Below are positions 5,611 through 15,016 of a stretch of DNA of 36,154 nucleotides, piece by piece (position 1 is the stretch's first letter; every line of letters starts with the position of its first letter). Made by a program: the position numbers and the translations under genes. Below the pieces are notes generated by a model. It saw nothing but the letters and a program-made list of their open reading frames with translations. It had not been told where the DNA came from and did no database searches. Source of the stretch: a virus; UHGV virus genome UHGV-0071286. One strand, written 5' to 3'.

Positions 5611-7755
5611 TCAGAGCGGCATTTCATGCATCCGCTGTTGTAGTGTATGCAGCATCTGTTGCTGAAGAACTTCCTGCTCCTGTTCCATATTCTGTATGCC
5701 GGTAATGATTTCTGCCGTATGTGCCTGGTTAAGCGCATCCACATAACGCTGTCCCTGTGCCGCGGCGACATCCCGTTGTGCGCCAGCATTATCCCGTTGC
5801 GCAGCCGCGCGTGCCCTGGCAGCTTCTGCTTCCAGTTTAGCCACCCGGCCTGTCATTTCGCGCATCTGAAGTTCTGCCTGCTGTTGCTCCAGCGCCTGCT
5901 GTTGTGCTGCCGCTTCCTGCTCTTCCGGAGTCATCTCATCCGGTGATTTTGGCGTCCCCAGCGCCGCACGAATACGTTCGACAAATTCCTGTTTCTGCGG
6001 CACATCCAGAAGATTAACCCACAGATCGAGCACAACAGCCTGCACCTGAGGCGGCAGCCCCTGAATAACCTCTGACATTCTCTGTGCAAGCTGTGCCTTA
6101 AACGCCGGTGTCTGCTGAACAGGAGCCAGCGCAATATGTGTATTTAACCTTGAAATATCATTGGTCAGTTCACCATTATCACCTTCAGCATTGAGGACAA
6201 TGGTCTGGCGACGCTGACGATCATCGCGATTAATCACCACCGCATGATTACGCCGCTTTTTCAGGTCATCAAGAAGATAAGCGAGCAACAGCCTTCCCAC
6301 CTGCTGGCAGGCAAACTGGTAGTTATCGTTGATTTCGGCAAGGGTTGTGGCTCCCTGCTCCACCAGGTTGCTGATCGCCACGCCGGACGATGCATTTGAA
6401 TCCTGCCCGAGAAATGCGGAATAAACCCCCATCGTGTCCTGGATAAGTTTTTCCGACTCCTGCATGACCTGAAACTGCTGGCTGGCAACCTGAAAATCCT
6501 GTTCAACCCGGAAAACATCAGCAACGCTTTTCTGATTTTTTCGGGCCGGATTCAGTTTAATAATGCCATCCGGACGCTCGATCTGCTCCATCAGATCGTT
6601 GTCTGACAACTGGGTGGCATCCTCGTCCATAATCACGCGTTTGGCCTGAAGCAACCACGTCAGTTTTATACGACGAAAATTCACCTCATCCTGTGCCGGA
6701 ATGGCCCGGGAAATCAGCCCGTAAGGCTCCCCGGTTTTATCCTTCCGGTATCCCCAGAAGGGAACCAGCGGGAACATCCCCTGCGGCGCACTGCAGGGGC
6801 GATCCACAATAAAGTGCGGTCCCACAAACCAGGCTTCACGAATACGACTTACCCGCCCGACTCTCACCTGCACCCGCCCGGATGCCACAGCCACCGCATG
6901 CATCAGATTATTTTTATCAAAGGCCACCACCCGTCCATTACTGAGTTCAATCACCGGAAGACGCTCGAATGTACGGTAATAAACCACCTGAAGCAGCACA
7001 CGACGGCGTTCACGCTGAAGCCATTCGTTCTGCTGTCGATCCCATGACTGATACTCTTCCCATGCACTCATCAACGGACTGGGCTGGCCTTCAGTAACCG
7101 TGGTATCGACAAAACCACGCCAGTCATCAATGGCATAATCGATAACCTGAGCCATTCCCGGAAATGTGGCTTTTGCCTCATCGGTATCCATCCAGCGGCG
7201 GCGCATCAGCCAGCGGCAGTCACTTAAATCAGCCTCCCGGCTAAGCCAGTCCCAGAACACTTCATTCCGGCTGACAGTAGACACCTTAAACTCAGGCCCG
7301 AACGGATCGCTGTTCCGTCTGACCTCCACCCAGCTGAGCCCCGCTTTGATTTGTTCCGCATAGGCATCAGAACGGGCTTTATTCATATTTCCAAGGCGGC
7401 AAGCATCGGCAAATTCAGCATTAATAGCTTCAGCCAGTTTTTCTGTTTCATCATCAGGATCATCTGATATCACCAACAGATCAGTCCGCGTTTTGGCCTC
7501 CATACCCAGAACACCATCAACGGTAGGCGCGATGAGGTTATGGATGGTCATCGGCTGACCGCGATCTTTCAACACCAGGAGAACTTCCGGTGGCAACTGG
7601 TCACCATCGTAATACGCACAGGCCTTGTTTGCGGCATCGCGCCATTTAGGCTGACTGTCAATATCAGAACAAAGCGCCTGTAACTGGCGCTGAGAAAAAC
7701 GCGGCGTGGCTCCGTTGTCGTTTTTCGTCGCCATGGTATTAGTTTCATTTTTCAT
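5611..7755 (-). CDS. Portal protein (714 aa) with long C-terminal coiled-coil tail
   Basis: Immediately downstream of TerL (ATGA overlap at 7755); size and Ala/Gln/Glu-rich helical C-terminus as in P22 gp1-type portals. Confidence 0.75.
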   Translation of the reverse strand: MKNETNTMATKNDNGATPRFSQRQLQALCSDIDSQPKWRDAANKACAYYDGDQLPPEVLLVLKDRGQPMTIHNLIAPTVDGVLGMEAKTRTDLLVISDDPDDETEKLAEAINAEFADACRLGNMNKARSDAYAEQIKAGLSWVEVRRNSDPFGPEFKVSTVSRNEVFWDWLSREADLSDCRWLMRRRWMDTDEAKATFPGMAQVIDYAIDDWRGFVDTTVTEGQPSPLMSAWEEYQSWDRQQNEWLQRERRRVLLQVVYYRTFERLPVIELSNGRVVAFDKNNLMHAVAVASGRVQVRVGRVSRIREAWFVGPHFIVDRPCSAPQGMFPLVPFWGYRKDKTGEPYGLISRAIPAQDEVNFRRIKLTWLLQAKRVIMDEDATQLSDNDLMEQIERPDGIIKLNPARKNQKSVADVFRVEQDFQVASQQFQVMQESEKLIQDTMGVYSAFLGQDSNASSGVAISNLVEQGATTLAEINDNYQFACQQVGRLLLAYLLDDLKKRRNHAVVINRDDRQRRQTIVLNAEGDNGELTNDISRLNTHIALAPVQQTPAFKAQLAQRMSEVIQGLPPQVQAVVLDLWVNLLDVPQKQEFVERIRAALGTPKSPDEMTPEEQEAAAQQQALEQQQAELQMREMTGRVAKLEAEAARARAAAQRDNAGAQRDVAAAQGQRYVDALNQAHTAEIITGIQNMEQEQEVLQQQMLHTLQQRMHEMPL

Positions 7756-9461
7756 CAGTGAGCCATCCAGTGTGTGGTTCTGCGTTTATCCGTTTTCTGT
7801 TTTACCCTCACCGGCATTCTGGCGCGCATCTCCTGGGCAATCATGTAGCTCATAAGCTGATCATCAAAACAGCCTTCCTGTGCATTCATGGAGCCTTTCG
7901 CGTCATAAACGTAGGTGTTCATTTCTGATAATGTGCCCGACCAGCGGATCCCCGACAGGCCGTTATTCAGCAGCGTTTTCATTCCCTCTGTCAGGACCGG
8001 TTTACTCTGGCGGGTTGTCAGCCAGCCAAGACGGGGCGTATCGTCGTCATATGCCTGGTCAAGGTGCTGTTCGTTGTAGATATAACGCGTCGGATAGAGT
8101 TCCCTGAGTTTCAGGATAACGGCATGTCCGTGATTGTTACGCTCCGGCCCCACAAACGCGTTGTTGTACATACGGCAGACCTGCGCAATGAGATGAGCGA
8201 AAAGCTCCGCATCGAGATGACCAAACCAGTGAGCCACCTGCTCACCATTACTGCATCTGATGATATCCAGCGATGAGCGGTCTCCGTGCTCCAGCCCCTC
8301 AGCGGTATCTGCTCCGCATACATACTCTTCATCCGGATCCGGCAGCTCCCAGACCAGCAGATAATTCATCAGCGTCCGGTGCTGTTCGGCTTTATTCCCG
8401 TCACGCAGAGACTGCGCCTTGGTCTTCGTTCCTGTAACCGGTTCAATGTCATAAACAATCAGCGGTGGCGAACAGAATGACTCTGCCTGCAGCGTGCTTT
8501 CCGCACTGAACACCCGTCGTCCTGACGTCAGAAACGCCTCCTGTGGCGTTGAGGGAAATTCCTGCTTCATTTCCTCACGCTGTTCAGTTTCCTTGCAGAT
8601 GTACCAGTGTTTCTGCTCATCGGTAAGCGTGATGTTCATTGCTTTTTCAACCGCAGAAAAATACGCTGTTTTTTCCCGTGACAGCTTAAGTCCGCTTTCC
8701 GGCACTCTGGCGCTGTATTTGAGATCCTGCCACCAGGCGTAAAAATGGAATTTATAATCCTGTGGCGTCAGCGCCAGCCCTGATGCAGTGATTTCCTGTG
8801 CCCGGTTACTCATCTCGTAAAAATCGCCACCCACACCTTCAGCAGTGGATTCATCAAAGATAATGCACTCATCAGAGACGGCATTAAGTGTACCGGTTCG
8901 CAGTTCTTTCGCCTTAGCCGGATATTTTGCGCAAATTTTGCCGTGCTCTGAGATATGCAGGCGCTGCACCGTACCTGAACGGAATGAGGTTGCCACCTGG
9001 ATACTCGAGCCGTGACCAAACAGGATATAGCCACCGCTGGCTCCGCTACGACGTTCAACGATGGTGAATGAGGCTCTCAGCCAGTCAGGAAGATGATCAA
9101 ACGGTACAGCAATTTTGGTGCGGAAAATTTCACTGGCAGCCTGTTTATCCTGAGCGACAATCCCGCATTTGAGATGCGGTATGAATAATGCCTGGTCGAG
9201 AAGATAAATATCAATGGCCGTGGAAAACCCCAGCTGGCGTGCTTTCAGGATAATATTTTTATTGTGCATGCTCCGGAACAACTGGCGCTGCGCCGGTCGC
9301 ATTCTGAAGGTGACCAGCTCACCTTTTTCGTTCTGTATTTTGTAGAGATGATTGAGCCGCCACCAGGGATTGCTCAGTTTAGTCATGATGAACAGACGTT
9401 GTTCGGTCCCGGTCATTTCTGACGGTTCATCACATCGCGGTTCATTCTTCCGGAATGTCAT
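7755..9461 (-). CDS. Terminase large subunit (568 aa)
   Basis: ORF track; ATPase-like N-terminal region and nuclease-like C-terminal region; ATG at 9461 with SD GGGGAGA; overlaps the terS end by 20 nt. Confidence 0.8.
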   Translation of the reverse strand: MTFRKNEPRCDEPSEMTGTEQRLFIMTKLSNPWWRLNHLYKIQNEKGELVTFRMRPAQRQLFRSMHNKNIILKARQLGFSTAIDIYLLDQALFIPHLKCGIVAQDKQAASEIFRTKIAVPFDHLPDWLRASFTIVERRSGASGGYILFGHGSSIQVATSFRSGTVQRLHISEHGKICAKYPAKAKELRTGTLNAVSDECIIFDESTAEGVGGDFYEMSNRAQEITASGLALTPQDYKFHFYAWWQDLKYSARVPESGLKLSREKTAYFSAVEKAMNITLTDEQKHWYICKETEQREEMKQEFPSTPQEAFLTSGRRVFSAESTLQAESFCSPPLIVYDIEPVTGTKTKAQSLRDGNKAEQHRTLMNYLLVWELPDPDEEYVCGADTAEGLEHGDRSSLDIIRCSNGEQVAHWFGHLDAELFAHLIAQVCRMYNNAFVGPERNNHGHAVILKLRELYPTRYIYNEQHLDQAYDDDTPRLGWLTTRQSKPVLTEGMKTLLNNGLSGIRWSGTLSEMNTYVYDAKGSMNAQEGCFDDQLMSYMIAQEMRARMPVRVKQKTDKRRTTHWMAH

Positions 9462-10293
9462 CCAGTCTCCCCGAATTACTCATTTCATGCAGCGATGACA
9501 CGATGTCACTGACTGGCGTAATAACCCCCCGGCGCTGGCTGGTCAGAATATCGGTTTCCGCTCTGAGTTTATCTCTGGCGGCGTTGATTCTTTCCCGGTC
9601 AGCACGAAGTTTTGGTGCTGTTTCCGCCAGAACGTCCAGCGTCAGCAATGAGCGTTCAATTGACTCGATACGGGCAATATTCCGGTCAAGGGCCTGTTCT
9701 GCTTTGAGTATTTTGTCGTACAGGGCAACACGGGTTTCCACGTCAGCCGCCTCTTTCAGGTCGGCGAACATTTTTTTCAGTGTTCCTGTTACTGAAAGTG
9801 CGCGGGCCCGGGTGAACACCAGTTCATCGAACAGCACCATATCGGACGCATCATCCATGAGGTTATCTGCCTCAAGATACTTCGCATATCCACGGTGTCT
9901 CACGGCGTGGGTGTTACGGTCGCTAAACCGGGCAACGGGGTGAGGATTACCCGATCTGCTGTTGCGTTTCGTTTCTGCCGAATTTGCGCAGTTTTTTGCG
10001 CATTTTTCATCACTGCCATCATCGCCGTAAGACTCGTCATTACTGGACTCGTCATCAGCTCCATGCGCATTTTTTTGTGCGCTTTTTTGAGTGTCAATTT
10101 GCGCACTTTTTTGCGCATTTTTCTGCGCACTTTCCTCTGTATTTTTGGGGGAGTTTTTGCGCAGTTTTATGTACCGACGAGCCGTGCCATAGCTGATATT
10201 GTTCTGTCGACACCAGTCCTGAAGTTTTATGCCAGTTCTGGCATGTTCGCGTCGGAATGCCTGCTCCAGTTTTTTCCAGTCCAGCTTTGCCAT
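9442..10293 (-). CDS. Terminase small subunit (283 aa, N-terminal HTH, internal KSAQKNAQ-type repeats)
   Basis: Directly upstream of TerL; N-terminal HTH-like segment; contains a DNA repeat cluster (see findings). Confidence 0.6.
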   Translation of the reverse strand: MAKLDWKKLEQAFRREHARTGIKLQDWCRQNNISYGTARRYIKLRKNSPKNTEESAQKNAQKSAQIDTQKSAQKNAHGADDESSNDESYGDDGSDEKCAKNCANSAETKRNSRSGNPHPVARFSDRNTHAVRHRGYAKYLEADNLMDDASDMVLFDELVFTRARALSVTGTLKKMFADLKEAADVETRVALYDKILKAEQALDRNIARIESIERSLLTLDVLAETAPKLRADRERINAARDKLRAETDILTSQRRGVITPVSDIVSSLHEMSNSGRLDDIPEE

Positions 10294-10594
10294 GTCACTT
10301 TCTGACGTCCTCTGTTAAAAACTGACGCATAATGACCGCTGTGATTTTTCAGAATTCACACAGCAGCGTCTTGTTTGATTGATATTTACACAATATGGTT
10401 GTTTTATCCGGTTTCTTCCACCACCGCACCGGACAGGCGGCCATGCGGGAAAACGCTCACGTTACCTGAAAACGTGGAAAGCCCGGTGTGCATCGTTTTT
10501 GATTATCCCCACACACTCGCGCAGGAGGTCCAGTGTCTGGCTGAGGTCTCTGTTAATGCGGGAATACTGCGACGATACGGCGCATCAGCAAAAC

Positions 10595-11062
10595 TTATTT
10601 CAGGCACTGAGTGCGGATATATTCCTGTGCCCCTTCCAGCTGCTTCTGCATCATCATCAACCGCTCTCTGAGGGTGAAATAATCCCGTTCAGCGGTGTCT
10701 GCCAGTCGGGGGCCGGTTGCATTATCCACGCGGGCGGTGCCGGTGGCTTCACGCACGGGACCTGGACAGGTGGCGTTGATACGCAGGCGCTTACGACCAG
10801 CGGCAACGTCAGCGCGAAGAGTTTCATTTTCAGCTCTCGCATCGGCTAATTCCCTCGAGTATTTTGCATCGAGCGCAGCAACATCGCGCTGGCGCACCTG
10901 CATATCAGTAATGGTGGCGTTTGCCAGCTCCAGCTCTCTGGCTTTTTTATCGCGCTGCGCTTTGTAGGTGATGGCGTTATCGCGGTAATGATTCAGCCCC
11001 AGACTAAGCGCACCACAGGCCACCAGCAGGGCAATGATGACCACGCACAGTACGCGGTTCAT
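10595..11062 (-). CDS. Rz: Rz i-spanin (155 aa)
   Basis: N-terminal TM segment then charged coiled-coil; follows the endolysin; contains the embedded Rz1 frame. Confidence 0.8.
10657..10842 (-). CDS. Rz1: Rz1 o-spanin lipoprotein embedded in Rz in another frame (61 aa, or 56 aa from MKLFALT)
   Basis: Signal peptide with lipobox LVVSAC followed by a Pro-rich mature peptide, entirely inside Rz. Confidence 0.7.
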
Positions 11063-11063
11063 T

Positions 11064-11162
11064 TCACCACCAGCGTATCTGACCGATGAAATAACCGGAG
11101 GCCATAATCACAAACACCAGCCAGATAAGAATGAACTTCCAGGTGGATAATTTTTCAGCCAT
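11064..11162 (-). CDS. Possible 32-aa hydrophobic peptide between R and Rz
   Basis: ATG at 11162 with SD GGGAGA; [32 protein letters not shown]; its stop overlaps the Rz start region. Below the ORF-track size cutoff, translated by hand. Confidence 0.25.
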
Positions 11163-11236
11163 CACTCGAATCTCCCGAATCAGTTTGCTAAAATCAAACA
11201 CACTTTCCCCTTTGACTTTTCCAGAGTCAGGAAACA

Positions 11237-11275
11237 CAAAACCCCGCTTGCAGCCAACAAACGGGGTTTTTACTT
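11237..11275. terminator. Bidirectional hairpin terminator between R and Rz
   Basis: Hairpin ACCCCG...CGGGGT (11241-11267) with a T-run after it on the plus strand and a U-run (UUUUGUGUUU) after it on the minus strand. Confidence 0.4.
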
Positions 11276-11360
11276 TTATTCACTTAGTTTTTGTCAGTTC
11301 GCAGGATTTCGTGTTATCCGTCCGTGTGAGCAAACCGCATTTTTCAGCAAAATATTCTGC

Positions 11361-11894
11361 TTATCTGTCAATTCCCCAGCACGCCAGCGCACTCTCCTGG
11401 TCGCGACGGGATACCTGACCGTAACAGTTGTTTGAGCGAATACGGCAGTCTCTGCCACCGTCCTTAATCCACCAGCGAATCGCCTCACACGCTCCCCTGC
11501 GATCACCTGCATTAATTCGTTTATAAAACGTCGACGGGAAACACTTACCGGGACCAATGTTGTACGGACAGAATGACGCGATCCCCGCTTTCTGGGGTTC
11601 GGTCAGCGGCACTCTGATGTTTTTCTCCACCCACGCCAGCGCTTTATCACGCTCAATGGCGTTAACCTGGTCGCATTTTTCCTTCGACAACTTCATGCCC
11701 GGGACGACAGGTTTGCCATCCACCATGATGGCACCACGGCAGATGGTCCAGATCCCCGCACCATCACGGTATGCCGTGGTGTGGTTACCTTCTTTTTCGT
11801 CAAGAAACTGGTCGATGATTTCAGGCGCAGAAGCACCTGCCGCAATCAGCGCCAGAACGGCTACCGATAAACCATAGTGGAGTTTCTGAGTCAC
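11361..11894 (-). CDS. R: Endolysin (lysozyme R) with N-terminal SAR-like hydrophobic segment, 177 aa
   Basis: Near-identical by recall to Stx-phage/phage-21-type lysozyme R (…EGNHTTAYRDGAGIWTICRG…CYGQVSRRDQESALACWGIDR); hydrophobic N-terminus YGLSVAVLALIAAGASA. Confidence 0.9.
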   Translation of the reverse strand: MTQKLHYGLSVAVLALIAAGASAPEIIDQFLDEKEGNHTTAYRDGAGIWTICRGAIMVDGKPVVPGMKLSKEKCDQVNAIERDKALAWVEKNIRVPLTEPQKAGIASFCPYNIGPGKCFPSTFYKRINAGDRRGACEAIRWWIKDGGRDCRIRSNNCYGQVSRRDQESALACWGIDR

Positions 11895-12841: not shown

Positions 12842-14815
12842 TTATGCTGCTACGGCATTCACACCAACAGTAAGACTTTCAATCAGCACAGGGTAAGTTG
12901 CCGCATTTCCGGTAATATCCGTAATTGCCAGCGCGTTGGCCTCAAAGGCTGCATTCGTCCATCTGGTCAGCGTAAACGGTTTTCCTGCTGCATTATCAAG
13001 CACCGGCGTGACGTTCAGCGAGCCACCACCCGGGAAGCGGAAAGTCAGCGTGTGCCAGTCGTGATCGAACGGACCATAACTACCAAGCCGCTGTGATGTG
13101 GTGTTTGCATGATACATCACATTGATGTTTGTTTTATCAGTCTGCAGATAGAAGGCCGCAATATAACCCTCCTCTGATTCCGCTCCCGGCCATCCACTAC
13201 CGCGCCAGTAAATACCCGCAGAATATTGATTTGCAGAAGCATTGAGAGATACATCATCGGGGATTTTAAAGCGCAGCGTGATTTCACCGCCGTTATCGAA
13301 CAGCTCCTTCCCCTTACCGGCATCAATTGCGTGCGATACTTTCCAGGTCTTTTTCTGTGCAAGACCATTTTCTGGTTTTTCAAGACGAAGGGCTTTTTTA
13401 CCTGAACCACTGTCACTGACCAGCGTGTTTTTGACATCTGTCAGCGTCCAGCCCTGCGAAGCCAGATCGGCATTTTCCGCATTCGCATCATAAGCCAGCA
13501 CTGACTGTATCTTTGTCGGGACAACGGATTCAGGCTGAGTATCGCCACTCTCCTGTGCTGGTTGCGATACGCCTCCGCCTGAAGAAACCGCGGCTTTTGT
13601 CACTTTCCCGGAAACAAAATCTGCCACTCTGCCCACATGCAGAAGAATGGCTGTTGCCAGACGGTCGGAAATAATTCCGCGACGCGCCCATGAACCAAAG
13701 TGGGTTTTACGATCGGATGTTGTCCAGCTCTTCGCATCCGTTCGTCCACCGGAACCATAATACCCGATAGCCGGAATATCCGGGTCTTCTGACGGTTCAT
13801 TGGTCCCGACTTTCTGACCATTGTCATCCATCATAAACGGCACAAAGAAGATATTTTTACCGGCTTTGGTTTTGTATGCGCCATAGACGGCATCGTATTG
13901 CGCTGAATACGTCTCCTTCCAGTAGTACGTCGTGTCACCACAAATCCAGGGCACCAGAGAAGGAGAAGCACCAGCGCACTGACCGGATACTCCCGCCAGG
14001 TCAGAACGGTATTTTTCCACCATGGCATCAAACATGGCGGGCTGACTGGCGTACGCTCCCTGTTTTAAATCAAACTCGCCCTGCATCCAGACAACACAAA
14101 GCAGTATGTTTTTGGGGTTTGCCTTCAGCGCGGCCTGAGTGCGTGTCAGCAGGTCTTTATACAACGGCTTATCAACGCCCCATCGTTCAGATTTATCCGA
14201 CGCTCCTGAACTTTCACTGAACGTTCCGTCAGCACCGGCTGTAAACGCAGAGCCACCACGACAGCACGGCACTAACAAAATACCCGCATTTTCCGGCATA
14301 AAGGGCAACAGCTTTTTGGCAATATGCAATCCCTGTCCGACACACCCATACTGCTCTGCGCTGGCTTTCGGATGAGAAAAACGGCTCAAATCCTGCACAT
14401 CATGCAGGCAGTGGTCCGCCGGAATGATGTCGTTATATGCACAGGCCGCACCACCCGGTGTCACCGTACTGCGACGCGCCAGCTGTTTAATACGCGGGTC
14501 CGGACGGTCATATGTCTCCGGCAGCGGCAGGCCTTCACCATACGCCATGCCGTTTGACTGTCCGGCCAGCGCAATGACAAAGTAATATTCTGGTTCAACA
14601 ACAACAGTCCGGGTACCATCTCCCCCCGGTGAAACTACCGGAGAGGTCATATCCCCTTCAGCGACTATAGCCTGGATAAATTCAGCACCATAACCCGCGT
14701 TTGAGATAATCGGACTACCATAGGGTTGCCAGCCTTCCTTCAGTTTTTGCGTCAGTTTTCCTGCGAGGTCTGACGGCGATGATGCCCTGACCACGTCATA
14801 GTGTTTAAATGCCAT
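12842..14815 (-). CDS. nanS-p: Prophage sialate O-acetylesterase NanS-p-like protein (657 aa from MAFKHYDVV)
   Basis: N-terminus MAFKHYDVVRASSPSDLAGKLTQKLKEGWQP matches the NanS-p family found in the late region of Stx-type phages (recall); ATG at 14815 with SD GGGAGG 5 nt upstream. Confidence 0.75.
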   Translation of the reverse strand: MAFKHYDVVRASSPSDLAGKLTQKLKEGWQPYGSPIISNAGYGAEFIQAIVAEGDMTSPVVSPGGDGTRTVVVEPEYYFVIALAGQSNGMAYGEGLPLPETYDRPDPRIKQLARRSTVTPGGAACAYNDIIPADHCLHDVQDLSRFSHPKASAEQYGCVGQGLHIAKKLLPFMPENAGILLVPCCRGGSAFTAGADGTFSESSGASDKSERWGVDKPLYKDLLTRTQAALKANPKNILLCVVWMQGEFDLKQGAYASQPAMFDAMVEKYRSDLAGVSGQCAGASPSLVPWICGDTTYYWKETYSAQYDAVYGAYKTKAGKNIFFVPFMMDDNGQKVGTNEPSEDPDIPAIGYYGSGGRTDAKSWTTSDRKTHFGSWARRGIISDRLATAILLHVGRVADFVSGKVTKAAVSSGGGVSQPAQESGDTQPESVVPTKIQSVLAYDANAENADLASQGWTLTDVKNTLVSDSGSGKKALRLEKPENGLAQKKTWKVSHAIDAGKGKELFDNGGEITLRFKIPDDVSLNASANQYSAGIYWRGSGWPGAESEEGYIAAFYLQTDKTNINVMYHANTTSQRLGSYGPFDHDWHTLTFRFPGGGSLNVTPVLDNAAGKPFTLTRWTNAAFEANALAITDITGNAATYPVLIESLTVGVNAVAA

Positions 14816-15016
14816 TATTCCTCCCGGCAGGGATAGTGTATGCAATCAAGATAAGGTGCGGGCTGACGTCAGTCATGGACAAGGGTTCAGAAACAGGAGG
14901 ATGACTACAGCCCGCAATACGAAAAAGACCATACAGTTGCGCAGAGTGATTACTATCAGGTATTATTCGCCAGCTGAAAATTGATCACTTCACGTTTTGT
15001 TGTTTATTCCTTGCCA

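Follow-up and report, generated by a model that had tools for sequence, protein, structure and literature searches.

Short repeats bound by the N-terminal domain of the small terminase subunit (TerS), at or flanking the cut, are found at the packaging sites of lambda, where the winged helix-turn-helix of gpNu1 binds the R sites of cosB, and of SPP1, where they form pacL and pacR; in these systems specificity goes with the N-terminus. Lambda has fixed cohesive ends and a large terminase subunit (TerL) of the gpA type, and the sites of SPP1 are in part located upstream of the gene, which encodes a TerS of the Terminase_2 family. The pac of P22 is one asymmetric site of about 22 bp and not an array of hexamers. 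In the P22 pac-wobble mutant this site was changed at wobble positions, leaving the protein as it was (PMC11260489).

The pac site of P1 lies inside pacA and consists of seven hexamers of sequence TGATCA/G, arranged in two clusters of four and three (HEX4 and HEX3) around an IHF site and the cut (GenBank annotation; PMC10028697). Synonymous recoding of these hexamers lowers the titre 9-fold, and cleavage is controlled by Dam methylation via the GATC that they contain (PMC10028697). In pacA coordinates the hexamers lie at nt 193, 200, 212 and 227 and at nt 323, 335 and 346, in two reading frames, with the cut at 275-284.

For 933W and its relatives, classification by TerL phylogeny calls this type 'headful (933W type)' (PMC7317114; PMC6029569), whereas Stx phages have also been called 'cos phages', with the ends not shown (PMC7566468); on pac versus cos for the Stx phages these papers disagree. 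A search of the full-text literature found no paper that maps the pac site or the virion ends of 933W-like phages, or that names TGCGCA repeats in terS. Here, such repeats in the terS gene of one prophage are described and compared with the systems above.

Genomic setting of the terminase genes

The window (the whole stretch of 36,154 nucleotides analysed, viral genome UHGV-0071286) encodes the packaging genes listed below and, elsewhere, a sialate-esterase-like gene, an antirepressor, replication genes, exonuclease VIII and an integrase. From these phage genes along its length, the window represents most of a lambdoid prophage. The lysis genes are upstream of terS, which is followed by terL, a P22-like portal gene and then a capsid gene; terS and the start of terL share 20 nt.

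9442..10293, minus strand: terS, small terminase subunit, 283 aa (open reading frame with a full-length match to phrog_370, E = 2.5e-117)
7755..9461, minus strand: terL, large terminase subunit, 568 aa (terminase families phrog_2, phrog_24361 and phrog_38407)
5611-7755: P22-like portal gene (Pfam P22_portal, E = 2e-128)

The terS/terL junction (9300-10450) has 99.2% DNA identity to Escherichia phage PhiR12_3 and, outside the repeat region, 91-92% to more than 200 Shiga-toxin-converting phages (subfamily Sepvirinae). The host element is a 933W/Stx-phage-like prophage. No Pfam family was matched by either TerS or TerL, and hence neither Terminase_GpA nor a P22-type terminase family. An ORF of 667 aa (12842-14845, minus strand), with the late-gene regulator region on one side and the lysis genes on the other, carries DUF1737, a sialic-acid-specific acetylesterase (SASA) domain and DUF6645; tRNA genes were found nowhere in the window.

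A hexamer array in two clusters

Seven exact copies of TGCGCA start at 9985, 9997, 10064, 10100, 10112, 10124 and 10158, inside terS, so that 7 of the 19 copies present in the whole 36-kb window fall between 9985 and 10163. A degenerate eighth copy, TGTGCGCT, is located at 10076-10083 and keeps the peptide SAQ via the codons AGC GCA CAA. The rest of the window predicts 0.061 copies per 184 nt (Poisson P = 6e-13 for the seven seen) and none of 300 third-order Markov simulations contained a cluster of more than three, so the clustering is not explained by chance. Periodic units of 12 nt were picked up both by Tandem Repeats Finder and by a repeat finder. The array is made up of the following parts.

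10064..10163, minus strand: left (promoter-proximal) cluster, with exact TGCGCA at 10158-10163, 10124-10129, 10112-10117, 10100-10105 and 10064-10069 and the degenerate copy at 10076-10083
10003..10063, minus strand: spacer of 61 nt between the clusters, encoding the acidic stretch GADDESSNDESYGDDGSDE and containing the direct repeat GACTCGTCAT twice
9985..10002, minus strand: right cluster, two TGCGCA copies 12 nt apart (9997-10002 and 9985-9990), in frame 0, encoding K-C-A-K and N-C-A-N

In gene coordinates the exact copies are at terS nt 130, 164, 176, 188, 224, 291 and 303, in frames 1, 2, 2, 2, 2, 0 and 0, and the two clusters span nt 130-229 and 291-308. Those of the left cluster (frames 1, 2, 2, 2, 2) encode LRK, SAQ, NAQ, SAQ and NAH. 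One copy of the right cluster is also present in relatives from Citrobacter, Salmonella and Yersinia, 51-102 nt past the left cluster. The 10-nt direct repeat of the spacer, GACTCGTCAT, is exact at 10031-10040 and 10046-10055, 15 nt apart, encodes D-E-S twice, and is kept only in part in GER2 and P13374.

A preliminary description of this DNA had reported at least eight copies of the motif or its variants within some 200 bp of terS, which agrees with the seven exact copies and one degenerate copy counted here in 9985-10163. It had defined the motif with a T-run; the cluster of hexamers stands, but the long form TTTTGCGCA is exact in only three copies. The T-run corresponds to the A-tract of Lys codons on the coding strand and fades in distant relatives, and the extended consensus across lineages, read on the coding strand, is AAAA-N-TGCGCA-R-A. 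Similarly, peptides of the KSAQ/KNAQ kind, which had been assigned to the copies, are encoded by only four to five of them, and not by the copy at 10158 (L-R-K) nor by those at 9985 and 9997 (C-A).

Conservation of the hexamers as DNA

The hexamer array is conserved as DNA rather than as protein. In terS of the window the hexamer is found in all three reading frames, where it encodes L-R-K, S/N-A-Q/H and C-A, and one hexamer in three frames cannot be the by-product of a peptide repeat. Related terS genes were taken from phage records, GTDB genomes, IMG/VR and public assemblies. Those of Citrobacter, Salmonella, Dickeya, Yersinia and Aeromonas, at 40-65% protein identity, each carry four to eight TGCGCA copies in the same place, with spacings of 7 to 24 nt. 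At the distant end, Aeromonas phage phiARM81mr and Aeromonas prophages (40% protein identity) have six to eight copies at spacings of 7-14 nt; in the Aeromonas and Dickeya relatives the copies form one cluster in place of two. The 13 lineage representatives together contain 77 copies, distributed 51/16/10 over the frames and encoding 20 different peptides, the lineages being related and the counts therefore not independent events.

The choice of codons gives the same answer. Of the X-Ala-Gln/His tripeptides encoded in the linker, 49/56 are written nnT-GCG-CAn, where about 5% would be expected since, outside the linker, GCG accounts for 22% of Ala codons and T for 22% of third positions. The last base of the codon before Ala stays T, while the residue itself may be S, N, T, P, A or D. 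Within alleles, 2 of 30 columns are variable in the hexamer core and 0 of 24 in the core of the GATCAT array found in the sister allele (see below), versus 112 of 255 outside, a count that takes in indels and the mosaic tail. When relatives are compared for the DNA motif against the peptide, the outcome is thus clearly DNA: three frames, the 49/56 codon pattern and retention of the motif down to 40% protein identity.

Domain structure of TerS

The AlphaFold2 model of TerS places the array with respect to the protein as follows.

10159..10293, minus strand: HTH-coding region, an N-terminal three-helix helix-turn-helix (HTH), aa 1-45 (helices 6-20, 24-30 and 35-41, pLDDT 87-90)
10171-10191, minus strand: predicted recognition helix, Y35-G-T-A-R-R-Y41, of which residues 39-41 co-vary with the hexamer type
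9901..10158, minus strand: predicted disordered linker, aa 46-131, holding the whole array except the first copy (10158-10163), which is mostly HTH-coding

The pLDDT is below 50 at residues 46-116, 118-124 and 127-131 and 87-97 in the other parts, with the C-terminal helices at 88-97. The array is therefore predicted to sit in DNA for a flexible linker with little sequence constraint. This linker is basic and Gln/Ala-rich in the TGCGCA allele and acidic and His-rich in the sister (GATCAT) allele; as almost any peptide appears to be tolerated there, the DNA could evolve freely into an array of binding sites. Searching PDB sequences with a profile gave no hit, Foldseek with the full TerS model returned coiled-coil look-alikes only (E > 0.1), and Pfam searches with 60-residue N-terminal pieces gave only sub-threshold helix-turn-helix hints.

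Co-variation of the helix-turn-helix with the repeat

The repeat that follows the HTH-coding region differs between alleles, and it does so together with the recognition helix.

A-R-R-Y/H helix: TGCGCA, in 12/12 lineages
A-R-T-R helix: GATCA, 4-5 copies, in E. coli Stx phages (the common Stx-phage allele)
A-R-T-Q helix: GATCA, 4-5 copies, in Salmonella, with a domain that is otherwise TGCGCA-like (about six residues different)
A-K-R-Y helix: ATTCGCA, in a Pectobacterium prophage (two frames, giving the peptides S-Q and I-R) and in a Yersinia phage (S-A-N, mostly in the opposite orientation)
Two unrelated HTH types: GGTACGCAA/GGTACGAAA and GACGGA

A protein proxy of this pairing holds in 120 cluster representatives from a search of 5.8 billion proteins. 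In the common Stx-phage allele (e.g. P13374) the left cluster is replaced by four or five GATCAT units encoding IDHE/TDHE, and the recognition helix reads N-T-A-R-T-R-I-K as against G-T-A-R-R-Y-I-K in the TGCGCA allele. Alleles of the GATCAT type retain TGCGCA in the right cluster, once or twice (P13374 terS nt 234 and 258), and in some of them one of these has been lost by a synonymous change, with the protein unchanged; the residual copies may be relics of recombination or may still be in use. Recombination has taken place directly after the array, as all four pairings of array type with the two downstream segments occur. No hybrid of HTH type and left-cluster type was seen among the alleles compared, which is a weak point because the two parts are only about 100 bp apart.

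The GATCAT units occupy nt 141-182 of P13374 terS, occur in more than 200 Stx-phage records, and keep an exact 12-nt spacing with up to seven units (P0015). Each contains a Dam site and is coded as Asp-His, like the hexamers of P1 pac; by analogy, packaging in the Stx phages with the GATCAT allele may be gated by Dam methylation.

The same N-terminal HTH and TGCGCA repeats also occur on Terminase_2-family TerS proteins with an unrelated C-terminal part, with four copies in E. coli phage vB_EcoS-606R9 and six in Klebsiella phage ST405-OXA48phi1.3. Conversely, at least six N-terminal cassettes share one TerS core. Several of these arrangements have features of their own. ST405-OXA48phi1.3 has a second group of three TGCGCA at nt 359-397; Yersinia phage vB_YenM_29.18 encodes a Terminase_2-family TerS with an extra, homologous N-terminal HTH that is followed by its own hexamer array; and in the Salmonella prophages L107 and L108, and in P0066-P0072, the same TerS C-terminal core is carried on two further unrelated HTH types, with the repeats GGTACGAAA and, in both orientations, GACGGA.

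A simple recognition code of three residues was considered and rejected: it holds within the family and fails for P1 PacA, where ARRY is paired with TGATCA, so that the residues which set specificity are not only those at positions 39-41. On a broader view, the HTH and the hexamer array in its own linker may form a portable packaging-specificity cassette common to 933W-type TerS, some Terminase_2 TerS and P1 PacA, with at least six natural specificities (TGCGCA, GATCA, ATTCGCA, GGTACGCAA, GGTACGAAA and GACGGA) that can be as few as three recognition-helix residues apart (Salmonella L105 versus Citrobacter L007). We put this generalisation forward tentatively, and regard it as possible but somewhat doubtful.

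Comparison with P1 and other packaging sites

The locus resembles P1 pac in several respects. In both, the array is inside the small-subunit gene, straight after the HTH-coding part (pacA nt 193-351; terS nt 130-308), and in both the hexamers form two clusters with steps of 7-15 nt (pacA nt 193-232 and 323-351) and occupy more than one reading frame. P1 has four hexamers, a spacer of about 90 nt and then three, and the window has five plus one degenerate, 61 nt and then two. The N-terminus of PacA (NLNPNTARRYLR) matches that of TerS in BLASTP (E = 4e-4), and when a profile built from 16 N-terminal domains is compared with PacA residues 1-60 by hhalign, the probability is 93% (E = 3e-7); the N-terminal domain of PacA is detectably homologous to the HTH domain of TerS. 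The sister Stx-phage allele is closer to P1 in one further respect, its hexamer containing GATC and being coded Asp-His.

There are also clear differences from P1. TGCGCA contains no GATC, the only GATC of this terS being at nt 337, and P1-style Dam control therefore cannot apply to this allele. No match to the IHF consensus WATCAANNNNTTR with up to one mismatch was found in 9263-11513, unlike in P1. TerL shows no similarity to PacB (best BLASTP E-value 3.4), and the rest of TerS is unrelated to PacA by sequence.

With P22 and Sf6 the locus shares the position of the probable recognition site, inside terS of a presumably headful podovirus with a P22-like portal; the P1 pac is a better analogue than the single site of P22. 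It differs from lambda in lacking a Terminase_GpA match and in having a TerL of the type labelled headful on the basis of phylogeny, and from SPP1 in that, for the 933W-type family, Terminase_2 is met only in distant carriers of the N-terminal cassette. The array is best grouped, as a new member, with the pac recognition arrays of the P1 type; no earlier description of it in this phage group was found.

Function of the array

The TGCGCA array probably consists of binding sites for the HTH of its own TerS and represents the recognition part of a P1-like pac site. The preliminary description had proposed that the repeats plausibly serve in recognition for packaging, beyond encoding a repetitive peptide, and had suggested comparing DNA motif and peptide in relatives as a check; its reading is supported by the DNA-level conservation together with the co-variation of the HTH. 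Three other explanations have to be weighed against it. A low-complexity protein repeat, in which slippage in 12-nt steps would have produced the KSAQ/KNAQ linker with the DNA motif as a by-product, would fit the shifts in copy number by 12-nt steps between alleles (e.g. P0005 and P0015) and the position of the segment in a predicted disordered linker. It is very unlikely, because the hexamer encodes LRK, xAQ and CA in three frames, the spacings in relatives (7-16 nt) are not multiples of 3, whichever residue precedes Ala, its codon ends in T and is followed by GCG, and the motif is still present at 40% protein identity, a divergence at which saturation of synonymous sites would be expected. 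Nucleic-acid structure is also quite unlikely as the explanation. The hexamers might pair into hairpins within the terS mRNA, adjusting translation or the ratio of TerS to TerL, or into hairpins with a U-run that terminate antisense transcription into the late operon; TGCGCA is indeed palindromic, the RNA of the left cluster folds with z = -4.8 and that of an Aeromonas array with z = -3.0, and six terminator-like sites, formed by neighbouring hexamer pairs followed by T-runs, lie on the plus strand (9985-10153) where 1.5 are expected. These plus-strand hairpins are probably a by-product of the palindrome and the Lys codons. The non-palindromic arrays at the same position fold no better than shuffles (ATTCGCA, z = -0.7; GGTACGCAA, z = -1.2; GATCAT, z = +0.2), so structure is not the property that the arrays share; T-runs are absent in Aeromonas, and the change of the motif with the helix-turn-helix would be left unexplained.

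It is harder to separate packaging from regulation, as the co-variation of HTH and hexamer shows a partnership in cis and trans and is silent on the purpose of the binding. The array could hold sites for TerS, or for another protein, with a regulatory role such as autoregulation of terS/terL through binding in the 5' portion of terS, the real pac or cos being elsewhere; the description of Stx phages as cos phages in one paper (PMC7566468) and the failure to find an IHF site would be compatible with this. We consider it unlikely, given that the equivalent array of P1, in the same place and next to a homologous domain, is a pac site by experiment, that recognition of the packaging site is the known role of small terminases, and that no other repeat cluster was found from terS to the lysis genes, the terS-Rz intergenic region having weak repeats at chance level only. 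The ends of database records were considered as clues to the termini and set aside. The phi296/phi349 records end at the terS/terL junction, which looks like re-orientation to terL; the Stx2 II record is circular with its origin inside terL, and the RCIP0034 record ends inside terS, none of them being informative.

If the array is the recognition part of a pac site, as we favour, TerS would oligomerise via its long C-terminal helices and its N-terminal HTH domains, carried on flexible linkers, would bind five or six hexamers of the left cluster and two of the right. The bound copies would be 9-14 nt apart (multiples of 12 nt in E. coli), and the complex would position TerL, the nuclease/ATPase partner, for a first cut nearby. 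By analogy with the layout of P1, where the cut falls between the clusters, this cut would most likely be in or near the 61-nt spacer (10003-10063). Headful packaging would then proceed toward terL and the portal, in the direction of falling window coordinates. Binding by TerS, the position of the cut and the direction of packaging are all points that we infer. The HTH and its sites would move jointly, as one specificity cassette.

Implications for the Stx-phage group

The pac site of the 933W/Stx-phage group, which spreads Shiga toxin genes, has apparently not been defined. A defined array would give the start and direction of in situ (lateral) packaging of these prophages, and with them the host genes that are mobilised. 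The array would also be a small DNA tag with which plasmids could be made packageable by these capsids, and the natural series of alleles is a compact system in which DNA recognition by a small terminase could be studied. For unannotated prophages a simple rule follows, which is to look for a repeated 6-9-mer in linker-coding DNA after an HTH. Should the cassette reading prove true, the series would amount to a readable recognition code, from which pac specificity could be predicted from sequence alone; the GATCAT allele of the Stx phages would be Dam-gated like P1, and the TGCGCA allele of this window would have escaped Dam control.
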